This document shows positions 1 to 11,056 of a stretch of DNA of 11,056 nucleotides, in pieces. The notes below the pieces were generated by a model. That model was not told the DNA's origin, did not search any database, and saw nothing but the letters and a program-made list of their open reading frames with translations. The translations under genes were made by a program, and so were the position numbers. This DNA is from a virus. Lineage: Duplodnaviria; Heunggongvirae; Uroviricota; Caudoviricetes. The stretch lies in the IMG/VR virus record IMGVR_UViG_2663763028_000004, positions 1-11,056 of that record; one strand, written 5' to 3'. How positions within the stretch are numbered: position 1 is the stretch's first letter; each line of letters starts with the position of its first letter.

Positions 1-472
1 TAGTAAACATCCGTCGAGGACTGATGAACGGTCGCCAAATCAGCAGCATGGAGCCTTTGCTGTTTCCCTTCTTCTCCAGCCCCGTCGATGGTTCGATAAA
101 ATTAATCCGTCCATCAGTGATAATGCGAACTTCGTCGACACTCTCCAGAGCCTTGCTGAACCATCCGACTGACATATCCTCTGGCACAAGCATCACTACC
201 GTCTGTCGCTGTTGTATGCACTGCTCAGCGGCTTTTTCCACCCACGGCCTGATATTGCTGTACGGTGGGTTATTCCAGATTGCCCCGTGGCTTATCCACT
301 CAGAATTTAGCGCGTCGTCGGCCTCAGTTAGCCAGTGAGCACACAGAGCATTTTTGTCGCTCGCTGCCGAATCCAGCCAGAATCCAAACTCAATATCCAG
401 TGCATCAAAAAGCCAAAGCGGCGTTTGCCAGCAGTCCTTGTCGTGTGCTGGCGTATTTGATTTGATAGTCAT
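1..472 (-). CDS. Phage-type DNA N6-adenine methyltransferase (Dam family); C-terminal end lies beyond the window start
   Basis: Not in the ORF track (no stop in window). My own reverse-strand translation from ATG (complement of 470-472) gives MTIKSNTPAHDKDCWQTPLWLFDALDIEFGFWLDS...WNNPPYSNIRPW..., with the NPPY catalytic tetrapeptide of N6-adenine MTases. Start overlaps the ninB stop (ATGA). Confidence 0.75.
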   Translation of the reverse strand, partial: MTIKSNTPAHDKDCWQTPLWLFDALDIEFGFWLDSAASDKNALCAHWLTEADDALNSEWISHGAIWNNPPYSNIRPWVEKAAEQCIQQRQTVVMLVPEDMSVGWFSKALESVDEVRIITDGRINFIEPSTGLEKKGNSKGSMLLIWRPFISPRRMFT

Positions 473-909
473 GCTGCCCGATCTCCCCATCGCGCTTTCC
501 ATTCGAGAGCCAGTCGAGCTTCGTCTGACCACTTAACGCCACGCTCTGTACCGAATGCCTGTATAAGCTCTAATAGCTCCGCAAATTCGCTTACACGCAT
601 CCTGCTGGTTGACTGGCCTATTACCACAAAGCCATTCCCGGCAAGGTTAGGAACAACATCCTGCTGCTTTAATGCTGCGGTAAACACACACTTCCAGCTT
701 TCTGCATCCAGCCAGCGACCATGCCATTCAACCTGACGAGAGACGTCACCAAGGCAAGCCCAAAGCTTTCGATTCTGGTCTAAGCTGCGGTTGCGTTCCT
801 GAATGGTTACTACGATTGGTTTGGTTGGGTCTGGAAGAATTTGCTGTACTGCGTGAATAGCGTTTTGCTGATGTGCTGGAGATCGAATTTCAAAGGTTAG
901 TTTTTTCAT
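469..909 (-). CDS. ninB: NinB (Orf-family recombination mediator)
   Basis: Track ORF 469..927; translation from the internal Met (MKKLTFEIRSPAHQQNAIHAVQQILPDPTKP...) matches lambda NinB as I recall it. Start trimmed to 909 because a GGGAGAGAGGGAAG Shine-Dalgarno sits just upstream of that ATG. Confidence 0.88.
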   Translation of the reverse strand: MKKLTFEIRSPAHQQNAIHAVQQILPDPTKPIVVTIQERNRSLDQNRKLWACLGDVSRQVEWHGRWLDAESWKCVFTAALKQQDVVPNLAGNGFVVIGQSTSRMRVSEFAELLELIQAFGTERGVKWSDEARLALEWKARWGDRAA

Positions 910-924
910 GACTTCCCTCTCTCC

Positions 925-957
925 CAAATAAAAAGGCCTGCGATTATCAGCAGGCCT
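925..957 (-). terminator. Intrinsic terminator between helicase gene and ninB (tR2-like position)
   Basis: 8-bp perfect stem AGGCCTGC/GCAGGCCT (934-941 / 950-957) with 8-nt loop; on the minus strand it is followed by TTTTTATTT (complement of 925-933). Confidence 0.6.
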
Positions 958-982
958 GTTATTAACTCAGTGATGTAGATGG

Positions 983-2359
983 TCATACGTCAGCCCCTTG
1001 TGCATATCGTCTGCCACGCGCAGCAGGTGCATTTGATGCTGTGCAAATCTGTCTGGCTTCATCCTGGTCACACGCAACAAAGTGTCCGTTGCAGAACCGC
1101 TGGTAAACCGTACCAAGCGAGCCAAAACGGTTTTTCGTCACGATGATTTCAGCAAATGGCGCGGCGCTACTGTTCTCGTCATATACCGCTTCCCGATAGA
1201 GCATGATGATTGAGTCTGCGTCCTGCTCAATGCTTCCTGAATCACGCAAATCTGCGTTTGTCGGGCGTTTATTTGGTCGCTTCTCAACATCGCGCGAAAG
1301 CTGACTCAGGGAGATAACAGACGTTTTCAGGTCTTTCGCCATCGCCTTCAGGCTTCCGGAGATGTGAGCAATTGCAAGGTCGTTGCGGTCTGCTTTCGGC
1401 TTCTCAATCAGGCCAAGATAATCCGCCATGATGAGTGACAGGTTTGGATTTTCCTGTTTGTGCCGTTCTGCGATTGAGCGTATTTCTTCGACCGATAACC
1501 GCGATGCATCGACTACCCATACATCCAAATCTGCAAGCTGACTCATGCCGTTAGCAACACGCGCCCAGCCTTCGTCATCCATCGATGCAGGATTTCGCAG
1601 CACGCTAACCGACATCCTCCCGGCGTTGGCAATGCTCCGCTCTGCAATCTGCAATGCGCTCATTTCCATTGAGAAAATCAATACTCCGCGCCGGACGTCA
1701 GAACCAGGAATAACGCGGCTTGCAACACCTTCGGCAATCTTCAGCGCCAGTTCGGTTTTCCCCATACCAGGACGAGCGGCGATAATCACCAGGTCTTCCG
1801 CGTTCATCCCTCCGGTGATAGCGTCAAGTTCTTCGATTCCGGTCTTCAGGGTATCGGACTCTTCTCCGTTCCTCAGACGCCTGTCAAGCGTGTCAGTGTA
1901 GTCAGTGATGATTTCACCTAACCGTACAGGTTTAACCTCGTCACGGGGCTTTCTGATGGCTGAGAGACGCTTTACAAGCTCATCCATCGCCTGACTCGAT
2001 GCGTCGATGGTTCCGCTCTGAATTGGTTCACGCATTTCGTCCATGATTTCCAGCACCAGACGGCGGTGATAGTTATCCGCGACCATTCCGGCATATCCCT
2101 TCAGGTTTGCGGCACTCGGGCAGTTTTTGCTGGTCATCAGGATTGACGTGAAATGCTCCTCTCCGCACGCCTCGGCAACCATCAGCGCATCGATTAGGTT
2201 TCTGTTTCTCGCCTGCTTGCGGATAACCTCGAAGGCTTTCCGGTAGAGTGGAATTGAAAACGCTTCCGGATCCAGCGTTGCCAGAACGTCGCTGGCGGTT
2301 GGTGTTAATCCACCAATCAGCAGGCCACCGATAACGCTCGCTTCGATATCCTGTCTCAT
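983..2359 (-). CDS. Replicative DNA helicase, DnaB family (phage P22 gene 12-type), replacing lambda P
   Basis: 458-aa track ORF; Walker A ARPGMGKT, Walker B-like LIMADYLGL, DnaB-like N-terminal domain. AGGGGGA RBS upstream; start overlaps the stop of the upstream O-like gene (ATGA). Confidence 0.9.
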
Positions 2360-3186
2360 GCAATCCCCCTGTCTGCAAACTTCCCTTCCCGTACTCCCGT
2401 TAACGAATCTTCCCTCAGCAGGTAATCAAAATCGGCCGTCCAGCCCGTGTCGTTGTCTCCGAAGTAAAACGGCTTGGCCTGATGCACAAACGCCCTGACA
2501 TACGCTCTGAAACCGTCCACGTTTGGCGTTTTCAGTTGCGGGATGATTTTCTTCAGGCGGCGTTTGCGTTTCTCGTTGACCGCAACAGCATGTGGAAGTC
2601 TGTCACCGACTTCGGTGTTGTAGGCGTTCAGGAAGGATTCGTAGTCGATTCGTTCTGCCTTGCGACGTTCAGGTTTAACCTGCCCATCGCCGCCCCCGTT
2701 AGGGGGTAAGGGGGTATTTGTATTTATTGTCTTTTGTATATTGTCTTTTGTGTTTGACTGATTCGGTAAATTGCTTTTTACCGATTTGGTGAAGGTTTGT
2801 TTTACCGAATTGGTAAATGTTTTACCGAATCCGTTAACTTTCGTTTTCCACTCGGAAATGTTTGTATTCATACCAACTTGACGCCCCACCTGAATGAGAA
2901 CTCCCATTCTGATAAGCTCGTTTTTGGCGGTAGAGCATTTGGTTGGTGCCATGCCAGTGAGTTCAGCGAACTGTTCGTTTCCGATCCAATCTATTTTTTT
3001 GTTGTAACCGTATGTCTTGCGCCACACAGCCATAACAATCAGTAACTGATGTAGAGTAAGTCCAGAAAGCATGGCGGCTTCTAACAGTGTGTTTGCAGTC
3101 CGAGTGTAGCCATCTTCGAGTTCTGCCACGCGATGCTCCACGACCTCCAGTTGAGGCCTGTAATCAGCTAACTTAACGACGCCCAT
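2356..3186 (-). CDS. O: Replication initiator, lambda O family (replisome organiser)
   Basis: 276-aa track ORF; N-terminal domain ([32 protein letters not shown]) resembles lambda O as I recall it. Low-complexity central linker ([15 protein letters not shown]) is encoded by the iteron array. Confidence 0.85.
2715..2838. repeat. Probable replication origin inside the O-like gene: iterons plus AT-rich tract
   Basis: Three direct copies of GTTTTACCGA(A/T)T starting near 2774, 2799 and 2819, one inverted copy (ATTCGGTAAA, 2761-2770), and an adjacent T-rich tract with tandem ATTGTCTTTTGT (2726-2750). Relative to O transcription the order is iterons then AT-rich tract, as in ori-lambda. Confidence 0.7.
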
Positions 3187-3334
3187 GTTTCACTCCTGCT
3201 TTGGCTAGTCTGTAAACACCAACAAGGCGCTCTGCGAACGCCCTGTTATTTGCTGCGGCTACCACTAATCCCTCAGGTGAATCAGGGTGTCGAATCTCTT
3301 CTTTTTCCTGGTATTTCTTACGACGTTTTGTCAT
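3173..3334 (-). CDS. Hypothetical small basic protein (53 aa) between cII and O
   Basis: Not in track (<60 aa). My translation: [59 protein letters not shown] Shine-Dalgarno 5 nt upstream; 3' end overlaps the O start. Confidence 0.4.
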   Translation of the reverse strand: MTKRRKKYQEKEEIRHPDSPEGLVVAAANNRAFAERLVGVYRLAKAGVKHGRR

Positions 3335-3344
3335 AATTACTCCT

Positions 3345-3421
3345 GTGGATTGATCCAGTAATTCCCTCAGAATTGCATATCAATTTGCTTAAAATCCTCG
3401 GTGGCGGCCGGGGATTTTTTC
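3345..3421 (+). ncRNA. oop-like antisense RNA overlapping the 3' end of cII (coordinates estimated)
   Basis: Extended -10 promoter TG-T-CATAAT (3329-3337) on the plus strand; plus-strand terminator hairpin CCTCGG/CCGGGG (3396-3413) followed by TTTTTT, inside and antisense to the cII 3' end. Same arrangement as pO/oop in lambda. Confidence 0.4.
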
Positions 3422-3663
3422 TTTGTGATTTCATCAAGCGCATACTTAAAAGCCCTGCTAATCGGACTGATGTCTGATGCCATTCCGAAAGCACACAAGA
3501 CCGAAGCAATAAATCTCCAGTCCGTTCTGCTTATCTTCGATTCATGACAGCCAATCATCTTTGCCAGACCGCGCTGTGTAAGCGTTGACAGGTTGATGAG
3601 TAAATCTGTTTCTGCGCGATCAACGTCGCGCTGTGATAGTTTGCTGTAACTTGTTTGTTCCAT
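3367..3663 (-). CDS. cII: CII-family transcriptional activator
   Basis: 98-aa track ORF in the canonical position downstream of cro and nutR; helix-turn-helix-like segment (GLAKMIGCHESKISR). Its start codon abuts a TTGC-N6-TTGT element, as in lambda. Confidence 0.8.
   Translation of the reverse strand: MEQTSYSKLSQRDVDRAETDLLINLSTLTQRGLAKMIGCHESKISRTDWRFIASVLCAFGMASDISPISRAFKYALDEITKKKSPAATEDFKQIDMQF
3394..3421 (+). terminator. Intrinsic terminator of the antisense RNA (tO-like), with bidirectional character
   Basis: 6-bp stem with one G-U pair, 6-nt loop, then a T6 run (3415-3420); A-run on the 5' side. Confidence 0.55.
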
Positions 3664-3673
3664 TTCTTACTAT
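3641..3673 (+). promoter_or_regulatory. pRE-like CII-activated promoter
   Basis: TTGC-tgtaac-TTGT-ttgttc-CAT (3641-3663) has the same spacing as lambda pRE (TTGC-N6-TTGC-N6-CAT, where CAT is the reverse of the cII ATG); candidate -10 TACTAT at 3668-3673 points toward cro/cI on the plus strand. Confidence 0.55.
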
Positions 3674-3697
3674 TTCCATGGGTAAATAATCACTAAT

Positions 3698-3715
3698 ACT
3701 CATCTTTCGATGAGT
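3698..3715 (-). terminator. tR1-position hairpin (7-bp stem, GAAA loop); terminator function uncertain
   Basis: ACTCATC-GAAA-GATGAGT on the minus strand between nutR and the cII RBS; no strong U-tract follows, so Rho-dependent or merely structural. Confidence 0.3.
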
Positions 3716-3727
3716 GCTTAATTAGTT

Positions 3728-3762
3728 ACCGCGTTGTCGGCGGTGCAGATTGATAAAGAGCG
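3728..3762 (-). promoter_or_regulatory. nutR (boxA + boxB)
   Basis: Minus-strand boxA CGCTCTTTA (complement of 3754-3762) directly after the cro stop; boxB hairpin ACCGC-CGACAAC-GCGGT (complement of 3728-3744) with a GACAA-containing loop, as in P22-type boxB. Confidence 0.65.
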
Positions 3763-3769
3763 GTGTTAC

Positions 3770-3997
3770 TTATGCAGCCAGAAGGTTCTTTTTGCTTATT
3801 TCAAGCATTTCGCTTGCTTGATATTTGCCACCAGAAATCTCTTCGATTTTTGATGCGTATTTAGTTTTCCCAAAAAACTCAGTCTTAGGGAGGAAGCCGT
3901 TTTTGAGCCACTTATAGACAGCCCTTTCGCTAACTCCACAAGCCTTCGCAACTTCAGGGATGCCGACACCTTTAATCGGCTCATCAAGATTTTGCAT
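3770..3997 (-). CDS. cro: Cro-like repressor (HTH)
   Basis: 75-aa track ORF transcribed divergently from cI across the operator region; HTH-like segment GIPEVAKACGVSERAVYKWL; AAGGA RBS 7 nt upstream. Confidence 0.8.
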   Translation of the reverse strand: MQNLDEPIKGVGIPEVAKACGVSERAVYKWLKNGFLPKTEFFGKTKYASKIEEISGGKYQASEMLEISKKNLLAA

Positions 3998-4075
3998 AGG
4001 AATATCCTTTTTCGTACTTTCAGTACGTATTATGGTTGAACTGAAAGTTTTTGCAAGTGCTTTAGTATCGTACTC
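3998..4075. promoter_or_regulatory. OR operator region with divergent pR and pRM
   Basis: pR candidate on the minus strand: -35 TTGCAA (4051-4056), -10 CATAAT (complement of 4029-4034). pRM candidate -10 TAGTAT (4063-4068) ends 8 nt before the cI ATG. Dyad elements: CGTAC-N5-GTACG (4013-4027); 9-mer ACTTTCAGT (4016-4024) with inverted copy ACTGAAAGT (4040-4048) flanking the pR -10; CGTAC again at 4069-4073. Confidence 0.65.
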
Positions 4076-4783
4076 ATGGTTCAGAATGAAAAAGTGCGCA
4101 AAGAATTCGCCCAGCGGCTAGCGCAAGCCTGTAAAGAAGCTGGTCTTGATGAACATGGTAGGGGGATGGCCATAGCCCGTGCCCTTTCTCTTTCGTCCAA
4201 AGGCGTTAGCAAATGGTTTAATGCTGAGTCTTTACCGCGTCAGGAAAAAATGAATGCGCTTGCGAAATTTCTAAACGTTGATGTTGTTTGGCTTCAGCAC
4301 GGCACTTCGTTAAATGGAGCGAATGATGAAGATACTCTTTCATTTGTTGGCAAATTAAAAAAAGGGTTAGTGCGCGTGGTTGGTGAGGCAATTCTTGGTG
4401 TTGATGGTGCCATCGAGATGACCGAAGAGCGCGATGGGTGGCTCAAAATTTATAGCGATGATCCAGATGCCTTTGGTCTTCGTGTGAAAGGAGACAGCAT
4501 GTGGCCTAGAATAAAATCAGGAGAATATGTACTCATTGAGCCTAACACCAAAGTATTCCCGGGTGATGAGGTGTTTGTCAGAACTGTTGAAGGACACAAC
4601 ATGATCAAAGTTCTTGGCTATGACAGAGACGGAGAATACCAATTTACAAGCATCAACCAGGACCACAGGCCAATAACGTTGCCTTATCATCAAGTAGCAA
4701 AGGTGGAGTATGTGGCTGGTATTCTGAAGCAATCTCGCCATCTGGATGACATCGAGGCAAGGGAGTGGCTGAAAAGTTCGTGA
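4076..4783 (+). CDS. cI: CI repressor (N-terminal HTH, C-terminal LexA-like S24 autopeptidase domain)
   Basis: 235-aa track ORF; C-terminal GDSMWP motif and a Lys about 40 residues later (S24 Ser-Lys dyad pattern); no Shine-Dalgarno before the ATG. Confidence 0.9.
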   Translation: MVQNEKVRKEFAQRLAQACKEAGLDEHGRGMAIARALSLSSKGVSKWFNAESLPRQEKMNALAKFLNVDVVWLQHGTSLNGANDEDTLSFVGKLKKGLVRVVGEAILGVDGAIEMTEERDGWLKIYSDDPDAFGLRVKGDSMWPRIKSGEYVLIEPNTKVFPGDEVFVRTVEGHNMIKVLGYDRDGEYQFTSINQDHRPITLPYHQVAKVEYVAGILKQSRHLDDIEAREWLKSS

Positions 4784-4843
4784 CTTCATCGTCACATAGC
4801 TGGTAACCAGTGGCCTGAAGAGACGTTTGGGTAAAGAGGATAG

Positions 4844-5097
4844 ATGGAGTTTAATGGCCATGAGTATCAAGCGGTCAAAAAGAAGTTCATCTATTCATTG
4901 AAAGCATAAGGCCATCTGAGTATATCCGTAATGATCTGGATATTGTCTATAACATCAATGACCGGACGATAGATATCGGTGAGCAGCGTCCTGTATGGCA
5001 GGGTGAGGCAGGTGAAAAAACGTCCTGCCATCAACAAGAATCAAGTGCATCCGCTCTCTGGACAGATGGAAAATTTATTGGATGCAAAAAGATATGA
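4844..5097 (+). pseudogene. Frameshift-split reading frame (about 84 codons if joined) downstream of cI
   Basis: ATG at 4844 with AAGAGGA RBS opens a 21-codon ORF (MEFNGHEYQAVKKKFIYSLKA). The -1 frame is open for 78 codons (4864-5097) with no ATG/GTG/TTG in frame. The two overlap at an A5 run (4877-4881) in the context C-AAA-AAG. Confidence 0.3.
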
Positions 5098-5207
5098 AAT
5101 AACACCTGTATAGCACGGAGCTTTCTCTGACCGATGCACTTGAAGTTGTTAGGGCTGACCCAGCCTGCTGTTTCTTTAGGTAAGAGAAAAGAGATTTAGG
5201 AGATGAA

Positions 5208-5235
5208 AGGTCGCAGAGGTGCGGCCTTTTTTATT
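5208..5235 (+). terminator. Intrinsic terminator downstream of the cI transcription unit
   Basis: 8-bp stem AGGTCGCA/TGCGGCCT (one G-U pair) with GAGG loop, followed by T-rich tract (5228-5235). Confidence 0.6.
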
Positions 5236-5335
5236 GAGAGTGGATCTTGAACGGAAATTCTCAAGACTTGAGTCTTACATGCAAATCAATTCCTGGATAA
5301 ACTCGATCTGAGTCAATAACTTAGAGAGAGAGCAA

Positions 5336-5857
5336 ATGGCAAAGTCAAACGTTAGCGTGCAGGCATTCAAGGACTTCCTTGAAGAGCTTATGTCGCTGAA
5401 CATAATGAAGGAGGCCACCGCTCGAAATTTAAAAAACTCATCCGCTCGCCTCTTAACGGTAGTCCAAGAAGAGGAAATGGGTGATGTTACTCAGCTTGAT
5501 GTGAATGAGCTTGCCGAGCGATACATCAACGCAACTGAGCCGAAGCCTAGCGACAGCAGCATTACTGCATATAAAAGCCGCATGGAAAGTGCAATCAAAA
5601 AGTTTGTAGCTTTCCAGTCTGGTGAAGAAATCCCATACACTCCGATTGACAAAGAATCCAGTGAGGAAAAAGATTTGACTGGCGAACCAACAAAAGTCGA
5701 AGGCAAGGCTAATGCACTTCATACCTATGATCTTCCAGTAGTTCTTCGACCTGAATCAGGGGTTACAGTAACGATTAAAGGCATTCCTAACGATATCACA
5801 AACGAAGAAGCCGAACGCATCTCTTCAATTCTGAAGGTTTACGTTCGGCCTCAATAA
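5336..5857 (+). CDS. Hypothetical acidic protein (173 aa), moron in the cI-pL interval; family not recognised
   Basis: Track ORF with purine-rich RBS (AGAGAGAGAGCAA-ATG). Same strand as cI, but separated from it by a terminator and followed by one. No hydrophobic segment and no motif I can assign. Confidence 0.7.
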   Translation: MAKSNVSVQAFKDFLEELMSLNIMKEATARNLKNSSARLLTVVQEEEMGDVTQLDVNELAERYINATEPKPSDSSITAYKSRMESAIKKFVAFQSGEEIPYTPIDKESSEEKDLTGEPTKVEGKANALHTYDLPVVLRPESGVTVTIKGIPNDITNEEAERISSILKVYVRPQ

Positions 5858-6030
5858 TGCAAAAGCATTCAGCACAATGTCCAACTCCCCAGTCCGACAT
5901 TGATGCTGTTTAACCAGAGCCTCCAAAAGGAGCCCTTGTTAAGGTACACAATATTTGCGATGTAACCTTAGCGCGTCTGGTACATTTTTTCAAGCGGTTG
6001 TAGGGCTGCCGCCAATATGAGAAAACACAG

Positions 6031-6153
6031 ATGTCTACATACAATTTGAATGACCAATTCGATCGAGAAGTTCATGTGAATGCCTATGAACGGATAAGGT
6101 ATGGAAATCTTGAACATGTGTGTGAGCATTATCGCTCAAGGCCACACCGCTAA
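6031..6153 (+). CDS. Hypothetical 40-aa ORF ending 8 nt before a terminator
   Basis: My translation: MSTYNLNDQFDREVHVNAYERIRYGNLEHVCEHYRSRPHR. Weak Shine-Dalgarno (GAGAAAA); supported mainly by position. Confidence 0.25.
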   Translation: MSTYNLNDQFDREVHVNAYERIRYGNLEHVCEHYRSRPHR

Positions 6154-6160
6154 TCATCAA

Positions 6161-6186
6161 CCCGGCCTCAGCGCCGGGTTTTCTTT
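6161..6186 (+). terminator. Intrinsic terminator closing the moron unit upstream of pL
   Basis: Perfect 6-bp stem CCCGGC/GCCGGG with 6-nt loop, followed by TTTTCTTT. Confidence 0.6.
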
Positions 6187-6352
6187 GCCTCACGATCGCC
6201 CCCCATATTTAATAGCCGAAAATGTGGTAAACCGCGAACCAACTCACCAGCAATACCCCCTTCAACTACAGACCAATCTGCAGCATTTACAAAAATAAAT
6301 TTCCTTATATATCAAAATCATATCTCGAAGCATTAATAAACCACAAAATTTT

Positions 6353-6400
6353 CGTACCAATAGTTCTTGATAATATCGAACTATTGGTTCATTATTGTCA
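6353..6400 (+). promoter_or_regulatory. pL/OL candidate region
   Basis: Perfect 11-bp-arm inverted repeat ACCAATAGTTC-N11-GAACTATTGGT (6356-6388); candidate -35 TTGATA (6367-6372) and -10 CATTAT (6390-6395) with 17-bp spacing; CGTAC motif (6353-6357) shared with OR; sits about 40 nt upstream of nutL. Confidence 0.4.
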
Positions 6401-6441
6401 CGTCAGCAGGAAGCTGGAAGCCAAACGGAACAGATTGGCAG

Positions 6442-6475
6442 GCTCTTTAACTTCGATGGGGCGCTGACAAAGCGC
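6442..6475 (+). promoter_or_regulatory. nutL (boxA + boxB)
   Basis: boxA-like GCTCTTTAA (6442-6450) and boxB GCGCTGACAAAGCGC (6461-6475), which matches the P22 boxB sequence as I recall it; lies in the N leader. Confidence 0.7.
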
Positions 6476-6594
6476 AAACAGATACCAAACGAGATGGGTT
6501 TGTCGGTGATGTGAATTGCAGCTGCAACGACAGCAACCAGAAGATCAGCACCTGGCGCATCACCACCAAAGCCATTTCACATGAGGAAAACATC

Positions 6595-6930
6595 ATGACG
6601 GTAATCGTGTACGGGAAATCAACATTTGCAGGAAATGCCAAAACTCGCCGTCATGAGCGGCGCAGAAAGATGGCTATCGAGCGTGATGCCATCTGCAACA
6701 TCATTGATTCTATCTTCGGCACAGACAGTGAGGAACCTGTTCAGGAGGCCCCAAGAAAGCGTTTAAGCCTTTCTGAAAAAGCAATATCACTCGGAAGCCT
6801 TCGCTGCAAGAAGGCAGAAGAAGTCGAGCGTAAACAGAACCGTATTTACTACCGCAAGCCACGCAGTGAAATGGGTGTGACTTGTGTTGGTCGCCAGAAA
6901 ATGAAATTAGGCAGCAAACCACTTATTTGA
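6595..6930 (+). CDS. N: Antitermination protein N (P22 gene 24-like)
   Basis: Start chosen at the internal Met of track ORF 6511..6930 (GAGGAAAA RBS). N-terminus MTVIVYGKSTFAGNAKTRRHERRRKMAIERD contains the arginine-rich boxB-binding motif and is near-identical to the P22 N N-terminus as I recall it. Confidence 0.88.
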   Translation: MTVIVYGKSTFAGNAKTRRHERRRKMAIERDAICNIIDSIFGTDSEEPVQEAPRKRLSLSEKAISLGSLRCKKAEEVERKQNRIYYRKPRSEMGVTCVGRQKMKLGSKPLI

Positions 6931-6938
6931 GGTGATAT

Positions 6939-7409
6939 ATGACAATATCATGGAGCGTACCTTTTCCTGAATCAGAAACTGAACATGATGGAATGCCTGT
7001 TTTCTGGAGATTCCAGGCGACAGTTGAAGAAGATGGAATCAAAATATTCGCACTTCAATATATAGCTTTTCATCAGACAGAGCATTATGCATGGTTGGTT
7101 CCTGCGCATTGGATTGTTAATTTTAAACCAGCACCAAATCAGTGGTTACAGGAATGGAAACAAAAGAGAAATAGATATGCAATTAAGAAAGTAGCAAAAA
7201 ATGCAGAAAGATCTTTTGCATTCCCAACGAAGAAACTTGCCATTGAAAGTTTATTGCGCCGGAAGAAATACCATTTAATGAGAATCAAACAAGATTTGGC
7301 TGTTGTATCAACTCTTGTTGATGGGATGAAGAATATTGATACATCAACACCAGATATTGAATATAACTTTGGACACAACCAAGAAACAGAAAATTGGGTA
7401 TTTTATTAG
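6939..7409 (+). CDS. Hypothetical protein (156 aa), AT-rich, directly downstream of N
   Basis: Track ORF with GAGGTGA RBS, 8 nt after the N stop; visibly lower GC than flanking genes (roughly 35-40 percent by eye); no motif recognised. Confidence 0.7.
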   Translation: MTISWSVPFPESETEHDGMPVFWRFQATVEEDGIKIFALQYIAFHQTEHYAWLVPAHWIVNFKPAPNQWLQEWKQKRNRYAIKKVAKNAERSFAFPTKKLAIESLLRRKKYHLMRIKQDLAVVSTLVDGMKNIDTSTPDIEYNFGHNQETENWVFY

Positions 7410-7423
7410 TACAAATAAGCACT

Positions 7424-7451
7424 GTGTATTCATTCCAACGAGTGAATACAC
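7424..7451 (+). other. Perfect 9-bp-stem hairpin (GTGTATTCA / TGAATACAC, 10-nt loop) without U-tract
   Basis: Seen directly, 15 nt after the orf156 stop; function unknown. Confidence 0.5.
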
Positions 7452-7513
7452 GGAGCAATGTCGCTCGTAACTAAACAGGAGCCGACTTGTTCTGATTATT
7501 GGAAATCTTCTTT

Positions 7514-7540
7514 GCCCTCCAGTGCGTGAGGGCCTTTTTA
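7514..7540 (+). terminator. Intrinsic terminator (tL-like), first of a tandem pair
   Basis: Stem GCCCTC/GAGGGC with 8-nt loop, followed by CTTTTTA. Confidence 0.65.
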
Positions 7541-7553
7541 TATGCATACCAAT

Positions 7554-7576
7554 AACGCTTCACTCGAGGCGTTTTT
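7554..7576 (+). terminator. Intrinsic terminator, second of the tandem pair
   Basis: Stem CGCTTC/GAGGCG (one G-U pair) with ACTC loop, followed by TTTTT. Confidence 0.5.
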
Positions 7577-7602
7577 CGTTATGTATAAATAAGGAGCACA
7601 CC

Positions 7603-7743
7603 ATGCAATATGCCATTGCAGGGTGGCCTGTTGCTGGCTGCCCTTCCGAATCTTTACTTGAACGAATCACCCGTAAATTACGTGACGGATGGAAGCGACT
7701 CATCGACGTACTTAATCAGCCAGGAGTTCCCAAAAATGGATAA
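7603..7743 (+). CDS. cIII: CIII (FtsH inhibitor stabilising CII)
   Basis: 46 aa from the internal Met of track ORF 7522..7743, AAGGAG RBS at 7591-7596. MQYAIAGWPVAGCPSESLLERITRKLRDGWKRLIDVLNQPGVPKNG is near-identical to lambda CIII residues 1-46 as I recall them. Confidence 0.85.
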   Translation: MQYAIAGWPVAGCPSESLLERITRKLRDGWKRLIDVLNQPGVPKNG

Positions 7744-7849
7744 AACACTTATGGCTATCCAGACTAAATTCACTATCGCCACTTTTATTGGCGATGAAAA
7801 GATGTTTCGTGAGGCCGTCGAAGCCTACAGAAAATGGAGGTCAAAATGA
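7736..7849 (+). CDS. kil: Kil (host cell-division inhibitor)
   Basis: 37 aa from the internal Met of track ORF 7610..7849: MDKTLMAIQTKFTIATFIGDEKMFREAVEAYRKWRSK matches the lambda Kil N-terminal region as I recall it; overlaps the cIII 3' end as in lambda. Confidence 0.7.
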   Translation: MDKTLMAIQTKFTIATFIGDEKMFREAVEAYRKWRSK

Positions 7850-8034
7850 TCCCGGTAGAACTGGCGAAAACTCCAGAGTTAAGTCGATTAAAAAGAGAGT
7901 ATCACATTGCTGAGGCTCGTTACTGGCGTAAAGCGGGAGATAAATCAAAGAAACAACTTTGCTTATGGCTGGCACAAAGAGAGCGCATGAATGAGCGCGA
8001 ATTTCTTTCCTCCCCATCCGAATTACCATTCTGA
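7846..8034 (+). CDS. Hypothetical protein (62 aa)
   Basis: GGAGG RBS 5 nt upstream of the ATG at 7846; ATGA overlap with the kil stop; C-terminus ...SPSELPF. Confidence 0.5.
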   Translation: MIPVELAKTPELSRLKREYHIAEARYWRKAGDKSKKQLCLWLAQRERMNEREFLSSPSELPF

Positions 8035-8042
8035 GGTGAATT

Positions 8043-8723
8043 ATGGGAACTGCGATATTAATACTCGGTGAGTCTGGCACCGGAAAATCAACCAGCATGA
8101 GAAATATCAATCCAGAGGAAGCAATACTTATAAAACCAATAGGCAAGCCGCTACCATTTAAATCAAAAGACTGGCTTGCATGGGATGCCAGAGCAAAAAA
8201 AGGAACCGTAGTTACCACTGACAAATGGGGTGTAATAGTTGCCGTAATTAAGCGTGCTCACGAATACGGGAAAAGAATCGTTATTGTTGATGACTTCCAG
8301 TATGTGATGAGCAATGAGTTTATGCGCCGCTCAGAAGAAAAATCGTTTGATAAATTTACTGAGATAGGCCGCCACGCATGGGAGGTCATTAAGGCTGCAC
8401 AGGATGCGCCTGATGACCTGAGAGTCTATTTTCTTGCGCACACCGAAGAAACCCCTATGGGGCGCGTGAAAATGAAGACTATCGGCAAAATGCTGGACGA
8501 GAAAATCACTGTCGAAGGCATGTTTACTATAGTTCTTCGCACTCTTACCCGCGATGACCAGTTCTTTTTCACCACGAAAAACAACGGTGCAGACACTGTT
8601 AAATCCCCAATGGGAATGTTTGATTCCAATGAGATTGATAACGATCTCTCTTTCGTCGATGCCACTGTTTGTGATTACTACGGCATCAATAATGTTCATC
8701 AAATTAAGGAAAACGCCGCATGA
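8043..8723 (+). CDS. P-loop ATPase, Sak4-like (RecA-fold recombination ATPase) candidate
   Basis: 226-aa track ORF; N-terminal Walker A GESGTGKST, Walker B-like RIVIVDD; located where lambdoid phages carry their recombination module; GAGG RBS. Confidence 0.6.
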   Translation: MGTAILILGESGTGKSTSMRNINPEEAILIKPIGKPLPFKSKDWLAWDARAKKGTVVTTDKWGVIVAVIKRAHEYGKRIVIVDDFQYVMSNEFMRRSEEKSFDKFTEIGRHAWEVIKAAQDAPDDLRVYFLAHTEETPMGRVKMKTIGKMLDEKITVEGMFTIVLRTLTRDDQFFFTTKNNGADTVKSPMGMFDSNEIDNDLSFVDATVCDYYGINNVHQIKENAA

Positions 8724-9307
8724 GCAACGTAATTTTTACTTATAACGAAGAAGCAGCACTGACCGCAGGGCAAGGTGGTTTTATTAACGAAACTGGCGCT
8801 TACATAATTACCATTACTGAAGCAGAACTCAAGCAATCAGAAAAAGGAGCCAAATTTATTGAGTTTTCTGGAGAATCCGACGACGGACGTAAAATCCAGT
8901 ATCTTAGCGTCTGTGTTCAGAAAAATGACGGCACGGAAAACAAATTTGGCGCAAATGTCGTTCACGCCATGATGGGGTGTGCCGGGATTGGACAATTAAC
9001 GCAACATATGGTTTCCGCCAGTAAATTTGTTGCACCTGAATTTCATGGAAAGAAAATCGGGTTAGTGCTCCAGAAAGTATTAACCACAAACAAAAAGACT
9101 GGCGCAGACAGCTACCAGATGGAAATACGCATCCCGTTTATTGCACAAACAGGTCAAACCCTTAAAGAAAAGGCAGAAGGCAAGCAACCAGAAACTATCG
9201 CCAACATGGTTGCCAGCCTCAAAGATAAAGACAATCGCTCTAAAAACGTAAGCCATAATCATGCAGATGATTATGGTTACAGCCAGAACGATTACCCTCC
9301 TTTCTGA
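8720..9307 (+). CDS. Hypothetical protein (195 aa) with SSB-like acidic/aromatic C-terminal tail; putative ssDNA-binding partner of the ATPase
   Basis: ATGA overlap with the upstream ATPase gene; C-terminus DDYGYSQNDYPPF resembles the SSB C-terminal DDDIPF tip; the body does not look like a canonical OB-fold SSB to me. Confidence 0.55.
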   Translation: MSNVIFTYNEEAALTAGQGGFINETGAYIITITEAELKQSEKGAKFIEFSGESDDGRKIQYLSVCVQKNDGTENKFGANVVHAMMGCAGIGQLTQHMVSASKFVAPEFHGKKIGLVLQKVLTTNKKTGADSYQMEIRIPFIAQTGQTLKEKAEGKQPETIANMVASLKDKDNRSKNVSHNHADDYGYSQNDYPPF

Positions 9308-9330
9308 TTACTGAAAATAAGGCTCCCATT

Positions 9331-9627
9331 ATGCCAGCGCCTCTGTATGGTGCGGATGACCCGCGCAACTGCTCCGGTAGCTCCAAGGCGGAGGTGCTGG
9401 GAAATATCAAAAACAATTTCGACGCGTTTCTTGCTCTGACACCAGAAACAAAAGCAGAACGGATGTACCGACGCGATATACAACTCGCGCTAAAACAGGA
9501 GAAGGACCGAACAAACGAAACAGCAATGAGACCGTTGCGAAAAGCGACAATAGACAAATTCCCTGAATATATCGACCCGCGCCTGCGTAATTACCGCTCA
9601 CGCTATGGCGCTATCAGTAATGACTGA
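9331..9627 (+). CDS. Hypothetical protein (98 aa)
   Basis: Track ORF in operon orientation with a weak AAGG Shine-Dalgarno. Confidence 0.5.
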
Positions 9628-9637
9628 GGAATTTACC

Positions 9638-9805
9638 ATGAGAGGACTTGCATACAATCCCGGCATTCTTCCGGCAGAAATGATTATTCGCCAACGCGTA
9701 AAGCCAATGCCATCGAGAGAGGAATTGCTTAAGAGAAAGAGTTTCGGTTCTGTTAATGACAACAAATATCTGAATGCGATGTGGCGTAAAGGAGGCAGCC
9801 AGTGA
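9638..9805 (+). CDS. Hypothetical protein (55 aa)
   Basis: Internal Met of track ORF 9605..9805 with GAGGA RBS 7 nt upstream; its stop overlaps the next start (GTGA). Confidence 0.4.
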
Positions 9806-10446
9806 ATAACCGTTTTTACATGATGTGCTTGCGTGAAACTGTGGGTAATAACGCCTCATTCCATTGCCATAACGGCAATGGTTACAGTTCTGATATCGAT
9901 CGCGCTCATGTTTACACGCTGGAAGAAGCCCAAAAATCCTGGAATTGTGGTCGAGATATCGATCAGCCTGTTTGCGCTGATAGCGTGGATGCAATGGCTG
10001 TGTGGCACGTTGATTGCCAGTACATCCCTACAGAAAGCCTGATTGAGCCAGATTGTACTGCGTATGTGGCCTACAAAAAAGGTAGCTGGAACGGCAACGA
10101 TGTTTACTGGCTTCAACACGGTGGATTGCCAACAGATGACTTCAGTAAAGCGACCATCTTTAGCGTCGCCAACAAAAACGAACCAGGAATAGTTTGGTTG
10201 CCATTTTCCATTGCTGATGCAGCAAAGCACCGGACGTTCAATATCAATAACTTTAACCGCAGAACAATGGTTCAGGGCGCAGGTTTGGTCATGCCTGACT
10301 GGTTGAAAGAGCAGAACAGAAGAAAGAAGTCGCGAAGCGGGAAGGTGCGTTGGAATTGTCCGCATTGCGGAAAAATAACCTGGCAGTACAGCCCATATGA
10401 TTTTGAAGGCTGTCGTGATTACAACTGTGAAGGATGGCGAGAATGA
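9802..10446 (+). CDS. Hypothetical Cys-rich protein (214 aa) with C-terminal CPHCGK...C...C zinc-ribbon-like motif
   Basis: GTG start preceded by strong AAAGGAGG RBS; translationally coupled on both sides; multiple Cys/His clusters. Confidence 0.7.
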
Positions 10447-10958
10447 CAATTGACTATCAGGCACTGCGAGATGCGGCAGTTGCAGTAGAAACAGAACCTA
10501 TGCATCAAAATTTTGTGGCGTTTCGTATGGCGTTCACGCCATCGGTGGCACTGGCACTACTGGATGAAATTAAGCGGCTGGAAGACACAAATATTGATGC
10601 TATGTGCCGTATTGCAGAGCTTGAGACTAATCTCGCGGCGCTGGTGGCAGAGAACGCCGGACTGAAACACGCAATGGCCGTAACTCTTGAGCATGTGTCG
10701 GTCACGGATGCAGGGCAGGCTGGTGTTGCTGCAATGATTATCAACGATGCCCTGCACCACAGCGAAACCCCAGCCACCGATGCTTTCCTGGCTGAAGTAC
10801 GGGCGCAGGGGGTAGAGATGCTGGCAAAAAATCATCAGAGTATCGTCAATGCACTTAAGGGAGATTCTTTATTTTCTGATGGTGAATACCGACATGCAGC
10901 TATTGTTTCCGCAGCTGTATATTTCGCTGCAGAGCTTCGCAAAGGAGGCAACCAGTGA
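10443..10958 (+). CDS. Ea22-like family protein
   Basis: N-terminus [15 protein letters not shown]...FTPSVALALLDEIKRLED follows the pattern of lambda-region Ead/Ea22-like proteins and of the adjacent paralog. Start placed at 10443 (GAAGGA RBS, ATGA overlap) rather than the track's 10434. Confidence 0.65.
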   Translation: MTIDYQALRDAAVAVETEPMHQNFVAFRMAFTPSVALALLDEIKRLEDTNIDAMCRIAELETNLAALVAENAGLKHAMAVTLEHVSVTDAGQAGVAAMIINDALHHSETPATDAFLAEVRAQGVEMLAKNHQSIVNALKGDSLFSDGEYRHAAIVSAAVYFAAELRKGGNQ

Positions 10959-11056
10959 GCGAAATTAATTACCAGGCACTGCGTGAGGCGGCAGAACGTG
11001 CAACTCCAGCAATGGAACGCCTGTTAATGTTGCCAGTTGATGATGATTTGTTAAGT
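10955..11056 (+). CDS. Second Ea22-like paralog, 5' fragment (continues beyond window end)
   Basis: GTG start with AAGGAGG RBS 7 nt upstream, GTGA overlap; VSEINYQALREAAERATPAMERLL... parallels the N-terminus of the preceding gene. Confidence 0.55.
   Translation, partial: MSEINYQALREAAERATPAMERLLMLPVDDDLLS

Follow-up and report, generated by a model that had tools for sequence, protein, structure and literature searches.

What does a small gene contribute when it occupies the very site from which phage lambda translates its replication initiator, O? The question is raised by an 11,056-nucleotide (nt) stretch of Caudoviricetes DNA (IMG/VR virus record IMGVR_UViG_2663763028_000004, positions 1 to 11,056; hereafter the window), in which an open reading frame (ORF) of 53 codons, ORF53, lies between cII and a gene for an O-like replication initiator. 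ORF53 occupies positions 3173..3334 of the minus strand, from an ATG at 3334-3332 to a TAA stop codon at 3175-3173, and its AGGAGT Shine-Dalgarno sequence (3339..3344, minus strand), read from the sequence, is separated from the ATG by the 4-nt spacer AATT. The product is a 6-kDa protein rich in lysine and arginine (14 of 53 residues, against 6 of 53 that are acidic), with a pI of 10.7 and a charge of approx. +7.7. The original prediction had described a basic ORF of this length with a well-spaced AGGAGT and a 14-nt overlap with the start of O; its coordinates and composition are as claimed, and the overlap follows from the position of the TAA and the initiator start at 3186. The ORF had also been called unannotated, which holds for the feature track available at the time, whereas public records, save a few that skip it, do annotate it. 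ORF53 is in fact a member of the HK97 gp53/PHROG 1331 family and not a discovery. The explanation that fits best overall, offered here tentatively, is that it is a genuine early gene, coupled to the initiator gene and accessory to replication modules that carry their own helicase.

The first step is to ask whether ORF53 encodes a protein at all. The window contains 127 ORFs of at least 30 amino acids, so the length of ORF53 is in itself unremarkable; as ORF53 alone is statistically unremarkable, the case for a gene rests on comparison with relatives. In 69 of 95 other fetched loci, the 162 nt are identical to those of the window amid otherwise mosaic surroundings, and a further 15 loci differ by single synonymous changes only. 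This sample was chosen by protein identity and therefore cannot serve to test selection. Selection was assessed on 11 genome loci from other enterobacterial genera (Edwardsiella, Trabulsiella, Yokenella, Enterobacter, Citrobacter, Chimaeribacter, Entomohabitans, and others), which share 69-91% amino acid identity with ORF53 and were each compared with the window. Among these divergent loci, the protein varies in length from 52 to 55 amino acids, and every insertion or deletion (indel) comprises whole codons. Variable columns number 30, 17, and 50 of 56 at the first, second, and third codon positions, respectively. The mean proportions of differing synonymous and nonsynonymous sites (pS and pN) are 0.61 and 0.16, and the median ratio of nonsynonymous to synonymous substitution rates (dN/dS) is 0.13. 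The remaining frames give ratios of 1.3-2.9, save the antisense frame that shares third positions, which shows the usual mirror effect and holds no ORF of at least 30 amino acids in the window.

The constraint is unevenly distributed along the gene. In the central 35 codons, which no other element overlaps, pN/pS is 0.19 with a pS of 0.67. The first nine codons, which overlap the pO promoter (see below), give a pN/pS of 0.38 and a pS of 0.70, and the last ~10, which overlap the Shine-Dalgarno sequence and start of the initiator gene, give 0.40 and 0.37; the low pS at the 3' end is as double coding would produce. Fourteen columns are invariant across 25 sequences of the family, and the invariant residues cluster in the pattern …E-E-x-R-H-P-D-S-P-(D/E)-G-L-V-V-A-A…F-A-E-R…G. 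In particular, the HPDSPxGLV…FAER core is the most conserved part of the protein, and the basic tail is the least conserved. These comparisons indicate that ORF53 is almost certainly a real coding gene.

Alternatively, the stretch might be kept only as DNA, serving as promoter (pO) and recombination 'boundary sequence', with an open frame that is fortuitous. The 69 identical copies, without a single synonymous change amid mosaic surroundings, might suggest this, as might the first ~26 nt, which are promoter DNA, and the stretch TACCAGGAAAAAGA, which is kept at third codon positions too. However, third positions are nearly saturated in distant hosts while the protein is kept, indels are all multiples of three, the start codon, Shine-Dalgarno sequence, and stop-start overlap are all preserved, and a uniform constraint on nucleotides would not yield the 30/17/50 pattern. 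That the open frame is fortuitous is extremely improbable, and the sequences compared exclude a non-coding reading. The original prediction had made its case depend on a reading frame conserved in relatives, and on conservation beyond that of promoter DNA at the nucleotide level. Both are borne out by the 11 divergent loci, in the in-frame nature of all indels and in the constraint on the amino acids; the first ~26 nt double as pO.

Two further observations concern the coding sequence. One viral contig (L195) carries a one-base deletion in the A-run GGAAAAAGAAG (codons 10-11), which shifts the frame after codon 11, and several database proteins, P0066 and P0075 among them, have a similar frameshift; such copies may reflect homopolymer sequencing error or occasional pseudogenization. 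Codons 30-38 (window 3221-3247, minus strand) can form a strong 13-bp mRNA hairpin, AACAGGGCGUUC-GCA-GAGCGCCUUGUU. It was considered as a conserved RNA element and rejected: the alignment fold is weak (-3.6 kcal/mol, two covarying pairs), and the hairpin is not kept in divergent relatives. It probably arises as a side effect of the invariant AFAER codons.

To which family does the protein belong? ORF53 matches PHROG 1331, a family of unknown function, over the entire profile (positions 1-53 of 53; E=1.4e-37), and a tblastn search found it 100% identical to HK97 gp53 (AAF31131) and Sf6 gp42. Identical 'hypothetical proteins' occur in Stx-converting, Salmonella, and Shigella phages; besides the two names given, public records list the protein as ES18 gp58, epsilon34 gp49, and, in E. 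coli prophages, as a PGAP 'hypothetical protein'. Part of the 2.1-kb region around ORF53 is matched in 1843 of 5426 complete E. coli genomes, and the matches in a plasmid search were mostly phage-sized replicons (37-48 kb) or prophage regions within larger records. The family is narrow: a HMMER profile search of 1.84 billion proteins found 26 representatives at 50% identity, all ~50 amino acids long and all from phages or prophages of Enterobacterales. Two long proteins with many short, weak profile matches (E 3e-6 and 1e-4) look spurious, and the search of these 1.84 billion representatives did not tie ORF53 to any larger family.

The position of the gene has been described before. ORF53 is the 'orf' of the cII–oop–orf–O–P layout described by Hayes et al. 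2012 (PMC3349717), where P22 orf48 and 'HK097 gp53' homologues are named as the ORF whose start coincides with that of lambda O, and which lambda naturally lacks. In the same paper, the conserved 33-bp oop/pO region is the 'sequence 5' of the HK620 paper. A literature search on HK97 gp53, orf48, DUF2740, and 'between cII and O' yielded this layout and a cloning mention, and no reported function; the 'orf48: gnarl1' of PMC12373910 is a library index and not P22 orf48.

The start of ORF53 coincides with that of lambda O. Lambda, P22, and the window have in common the sequence ACTGGATC(T/A)ATC(A/C)ACAGGAGT(C/A)ATTATGACAAA, ending in ATT-ATG, and the homologous ATG opens O in lambda, orf48 in P22, and ORF53 in the window. 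In the alignment, the Shine-Dalgarno sequence of ORF53 is likewise homologous to those of lambda O and P22 orf48. The cII stop codon and the ATG are 32 nt apart in both lambda and the window; together with the shared sequence, this spacing shows that ORF53 uses the ribosome-binding site (RBS) and ATG that serve O in lambda. The original prediction had regarded the ORF as an insertion relative to lambda, which has only a short spacer there. This description stands and can be sharpened, in that the spacer is the same in both and ORF53 sits at the ATG of O. The 31 nt upstream of the gene (3335..3365, minus strand), delimited by ungapped extension, form the conserved junction known as 'sequence 5' or the bsq5 boundary sequence, which comprises the 5' part of oop and the RBS; the Sf6 record annotates 'bsq5; boundary sequence' at this junction.

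The same few nucleotides also appear to direct antisense transcription. An oop-like antisense RNA of ~77 nt (3345..3421, plus strand) aligns with the oop strands of lambda, P22, and HK97. Its +1 position (3345), placed from that of lambda oop, adjoins the ORF53 Shine-Dalgarno sequence (3344-3339), so that complementarity to the mRNA would reach the base just before that sequence. The RNA folds into two hairpins (-30.4 kcal/mol, z = -4.56), and positions 3391-3418, which fall within the 3' end of cII, resemble an intrinsic terminator (hairpin and T-run). The putative pO promoter (3309..3337, plus strand), placed by homology to lambda and to the annotated oop promoter of P22, overlaps the start of ORF53: its -10 element CATAAT (3332-3337) is the complement of ATTATG, i.e., of the ORF53 ATG and three spacer bases, and its extended -10 TG (3329-3330) is the complement of CA in codon 2. 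Much of the family has T, P, A, or S as the second residue, all encoded by NCA codons, which may reflect a constraint imposed by this TG. The -35 element is weak (TGGTAT, 3309-3314), for which reason a consensus sigma-70 scan did not call pO, and the promoter is accepted on homology only. The P22 record annotates its oop promoter (32346-32374) across the start of orf48. A -10-like hexamer is present at the ATG in 13 of 13 ORF-carrying relatives, and a terminator-like hairpin with a T-run follows 57-77 nt further on in 12 of the 13, with quite different stem sequences; thus, the antisense unit travels with ORF53. An Rfam scan of 2900-3800 found nothing relevant, Rfam having no oop model.

Most relatives also keep the complement of TACCAGGAAAAAGA (window 3307-3320), third codon positions included, and a CCAGG (Dcm) site lies within it. 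The stretch coincides with the presumed pO -35 region; P22 orf48 has ACCAGG equally far from its ATG, the two proteins being unrelated.

At its 3' end, ORF53 interlocks with the initiator gene. The 14-nt overlap ATGGGCGTCGTTAA (3173..3186, minus strand), evident from the ORF list and the sequence, extends from the initiator start codon to the ORF53 stop codon, and a second AGGAGT (3192..3197, minus strand), which is the Shine-Dalgarno sequence of the initiator, lies inside ORF53 codons 46-48, 5 nt before the initiator ATG. The 14-nt geometry recurs in all 11 divergent genome loci, with an identical sequence in 6; in distant ORF53 members, the overlap is 4 and 26 nt, and in P22 orf48 it is 8 nt, so that an overlap is kept despite differing sequence. 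All loci examined show a small ORF followed by an initiator with an overlapping start, and in most a cII/c1-type gene lies upstream. Moreover, the N-terminus of the initiator (10 residues including VVKLADYR; window 3156-3186, minus strand) is always inherited with ORF53. Downstream of ORF53, two unrelated initiator families retain VVKLADYR as a peptide although their codons differ synonymously (loci L004-L014); it could be a docking peptide or a recombination adaptor.

This arrangement suggests that the initiator is probably translationally coupled to ORF53. In the proposed mechanism, ORF53 would belong to the early genes that a lambdoid prophage expresses from its rightward operon (pR), and ribosomes finishing it would feed the initiator start. 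Such coupling would keep initiator synthesis under the initiation site next to oop, from which lambda translates O itself. Two results weigh against this part of the proposal: the initiator has a strong Shine-Dalgarno sequence of its own, and burial of its RBS in the local mRNA fold is not significant (z = -1.6; no pseudoknot was found), so that coupling may be dispensable. A programmed frameshift between ORF53 and the initiator was also considered, and no slippery site was seen by eye.

If coupling were all that mattered, ORF53 could be a pure leader whose translation delivers ribosomes and confers sensitivity to oop, while the peptide itself is functionless. The architecture matches that of plasmid R1 and the IncI plasmids, in that a putative ~77-nt antisense RNA would end just 5' of the Shine-Dalgarno sequence of a short ORF that overlaps the initiator start, and the unrelated orf48 has the same geometry in P22. 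A functionless peptide is difficult to reconcile with a pN/pS of 0.19 in the central codons at near-saturated synonymous sites, or with the 14 invariant columns; furthermore, 53 codons are two to three times the length of known leaders, the initiator's own Shine-Dalgarno sequence is good, and no significant structure occludes it. A pure leader is therefore improbable.

What, then, would the protein do? A clue comes from the company that the gene keeps. In 82 of the 95 other fetched loci, a block near-identical to the window extends ~30-31 nt upstream of the ATG (ungapped extension), with the conserved junction as its left edge, and in most of them near-identity ends 23 or 63 nt past the ORF53 stop codon, with divergence beyond. 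The gene upstream of the block is of the lambda cII type or the P22 c1 type. The initiators that follow the shared N-terminus are of at least three kinds: HK97/O-like, a 296-amino-acid protein without a Pfam family, and a chimera whose N-domain is almost that of lambda O. P0083 and P0076, the most distant members, differ in their C-termini. They are followed by an initiator (HTH_36/DnaD_N or Phage_rep_O type) and then a DnaB-like helicase, and two of their three loci have a Phage_CII gene upstream.

The association was examined in a sample that avoids selection by ORF53 itself. Viral contigs were scanned for the junction pattern CTGGATCNATCNACAGGAGTNATTATG, and the 76 distinct loci obtained were classed by what follows the ATG and by the partner of the initiator, with Pfam checks. 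ORF53 follows the ATG in 26 loci in which the partner is a DnaB-like helicase (458 or 483 amino acids) or a 626-amino-acid Toprim+DnaB_C primase-helicase, and orf48 does so in 19 loci with DnaB-like helicases or the 626-amino-acid primase-helicase (several overlapping types). O follows directly, with no small ORF, in 27 loci, and in all 27 the partner is a lambda P loader. The rest comprise two loci with a gene for a 214-amino-acid T5orf172/MUG113 protein and an IstB/DnaC-like loader, one with a frameshifted ORF53 and a DnaB-like helicase, and one with ORF53 and no partner identified downstream. A phage-encoded helicase thus accompanies ORF53 or orf48 before the initiator in 45/45 loci, and neither small ORF occurs in lambda O+P or DnaC-like modules (0/29); Fisher's test gives p = 3e-21 when loci are counted, but only 0.028 when the distinct combinations are (7 versus 2). 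Within this junction sample, ORF53 and orf48 co-occur only with helicase-carrying modules. A DnaB-like helicase is also present in all 11 divergent genomic loci and in L097-L099.

When a chimeric initiator joins a lambda O N-domain to a C-domain of the primase-helicase type, with a partner of that type, ORF53 or orf48 accompanies it, an arrangement that, judged from the sequences, speaks for more than linkage. It is possible, though doubtful, that ORF53 is an accessory factor of replication modules that have no P- or DnaC-type loader. Its product would then act as a small accessory replication factor by means of its disordered Lys/Arg-rich tail, HPDSP(D/E)GLV core, and amphipathic helix; it might act at the origin or on the co-inherited N-terminal peptide of the initiator, and P22 orf48 (DUF2740), unrelated but just as small and basic, would be its functional counterpart. 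A stronger version, in which ORF53 and orf48 are required helicase-loading cofactors or adaptors (acting through the initiator N-terminal peptide or origin DNA) and in which oop also gates expression as CopA acts on tap/repA, is unlikely.

An AlphaFold2 model from the 25-sequence alignment has a disordered tail at residues 1-20 and helices at 21-29 and 31-49 (mean pLDDT 68). The hydrophobic moment of 0.4-0.5 marks the C-terminal half as amphipathic. Several points weigh against a role in replication. Scans of Pfam (E up to 0.1), NCBIfam, and PADLOC gave no match to ORF53, a sequence profile search of the PDB gave none at E up to 10, and Foldseek found none for the model in the PDB, at the modest confidence of that model. 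The association with helicases may be simple linkage: crossovers occur at the 31-nt junction and 23-63 nt into the initiator, so that the small ORF moves together with whatever genes follow it. Few independent combinations stand behind the association. Moreover, one and the same ORF53 is combined with at least three initiator families and at least three helicase families, which speaks against specific contacts with the parts of these proteins that vary. Finally, lambda has no such protein, and the slot can hold the unrelated 214-amino-acid T5orf172 gene, as is typical of 'moron' slots.

ORF53 could instead be a 'moron'-like accessory protein whose target lies outside the replication module and which simply fills a permissive slot at a mosaic junction, for instance a modulator of the lysis-lysogeny decision (through CII stability, or as an FtsH/Hfl inhibitor like CIII), or a factor in host takeover or anti-defence. 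The slot after the conserved ATG holds PHROG 1331, DUF2740, the 214-amino-acid protein (all unrelated), or nothing, and identical ORF53 DNA lies between different cII types (lambda cII and P22 c1) and different initiators, as a self-contained cassette with a host target would. The gene directly follows cII, and its product is small, basic, and helical like other host-directed peptides of phages. Against this reading stand the perfect association with helicase-carrying modules and the overlap with the initiator start even in the most distant members; there is no match in PADLOC or any annotated family, and the window already encodes a CIII homologue. This alternative has a limited chance of being correct, and a host-directed or lysis-lysogeny accessory role is nearly as likely as a replication-accessory one.

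The original prediction had suggested a small nucleic acid-binding or regulatory protein. That ORF53 is a genuine small protein gene absent from lambda has been upheld; the functional label was drawn solely from composition. An Arg/Lys-rich tail might bind RNA (oop or nut) or origin DNA, and a net charge of approx. +8, a disordered basic N-terminal segment of 20 residues followed by a helix, and expression alongside regulatory and replication genes would all suit a general role of this kind. Nevertheless, ORF53 has no similarity to N-type arginine-rich motifs or to DNA-binding families of Pfam, and conservation is highest in the HPDSPxGLV…FAER core, which is more like a protein-contact motif, and not in the basic tail. 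Nucleic acid binding as the main function is unlikely. An accessory role in helicase-carrying replication modules remains the tentatively favored explanation.

The surrounding genes are those of a lambdoid immunity and replication region, which is inverted in the window, so that the gene order is read on the minus strand: cro (3770-3997), cII (3367..3663; Pfam Phage_CII, E=5e-32), ORF53, the O-like initiator (2356..3186; Pfam Phage_rep_O and PHROG 345), a phage-encoded DnaB-like replicative helicase (983..2359; Pfam DnaB and DnaB_C), and NinB. The oop-like RNA covers the last ~55 nt of cII. The gene for the cI repressor lies on the plus strand (4076-4783). Two products of the leftward operon were recognized by eye in the ORF translations, namely the CIII homologue (~7610-7743, plus strand; MQYAIAGWPVAGCPSESLLERITRKLRDGWKRLIDVLNQPGVPKNG) and an N-type antiterminator (~6590-6930, plus strand) with the P22-like arginine-rich motif GNAKTRRHERRRK. 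Inside the O-like gene, iterons of the TTTTACCGA(A/T)T… type occur in three direct copies at 2776-2847 with a spacing of 20-24 nt, beside an AT-rich stretch and with an inverted copy just upstream (by eye). This region looks like an origin within the initiator gene, as in lambda.

Some modules of the junction sample have unusual components. In L139 (IMGVR_UViG_2651869781_000017), the slot holds the gene for the 214-amino-acid T5orf172/MUG113 (GIY-YIG-like) protein, and genes for an O-like initiator and a loader of the IstB/DnaC type come after it. L173, L164, and L197 encode longer versions of the partner proteins, with a primase-helicase of 968 instead of 626 amino acids and a DnaB-like helicase of 797 instead of 458. 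Within the 968-amino-acid protein, the additional segment interrupts the GHGKTEVVGH motif of its 626-amino-acid counterpart; on visual inspection, it resembles an intein that contains a homing-endonuclease domain.

oop is known for lowering cII expression. Phage replication of the P22/HK97 type is not known to have a helicase loader; if the link to helicases is functional, it would identify a missing component of that replication, and would also suggest that oop influences the expression of replication genes besides cII. Gating by oop, as in the stronger version above, would give it a second role, in replication control. The gene is widespread, occurring in Stx-converting phages and in those of Salmonella and Shigella, and for 25 years it has appeared in listings with no function assigned. 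The useful outcome is a sharper, testable frame: a protein under purifying selection, an initiation site that is that of lambda O and is interlocked with the promoter and 5' end of oop, and, in the junction sample, an occurrence of ORF53 or its analogue orf48 restricted to helicase modules.

How does this arrangement compare with known systems? With the HK97 gp53 family, for which there is no Pfam model, no difference was found: ORF53 is a member, with the same sequence, position, RBS, and 14-nt initiator overlap. It does not belong with the N-type arginine-rich peptides of phages, having no Pfam match and a basic tail that is its least conserved part. P22 orf48 (DUF2740; hkaW in HK620) occupies the same slot after the oop/RBS junction, with its ATG inside the pO -10 element; it encodes 48 amino acids with a pI of 10.4, overlaps the initiator by 8 nt, and is found with the same initiator and helicase classes. 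It differs in that its initiators start with MSN… and lack the ORF53-type N-terminus. Homology between the two was considered and rejected (hhalign probability 0.1%; all listed orf48 homologues carry PF10872, whereas ORF53 has no Pfam match). The relationship is one of analogy of position, and possibly of function, not of family membership.

A further parallel is provided by plasmid replication control. In R1 (CopA–tap–repA) and the IncI repY/repZ/Inc RNA systems, summarized in PMC8053102, as well as in IncB repY/repZ/Inc RNA and IncI2 repR/repA, an antisense RNA lies just upstream of the RBS of a short ORF that overlaps the initiator start. The plasmid leader peptides have 19-29 codons, in contrast to the 53 of ORF53, and the ORF53 peptide is under purifying selection; it is too conserved to be a mere leader. 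The closest counterpart of the start region is the cII–oop–O segment of lambda, in which the 32-nt spacer, the Shine-Dalgarno sequence, the ATG, the first two codons (M-T), the body and terminator of oop, and the pO -10 element with its TG are all homologous. In lambda, this ATG opens O, whose partner is the P loader, whereas in the window it opens ORF53, and the initiator has a new N-terminus and is followed by a self-encoded DnaB-like helicase.

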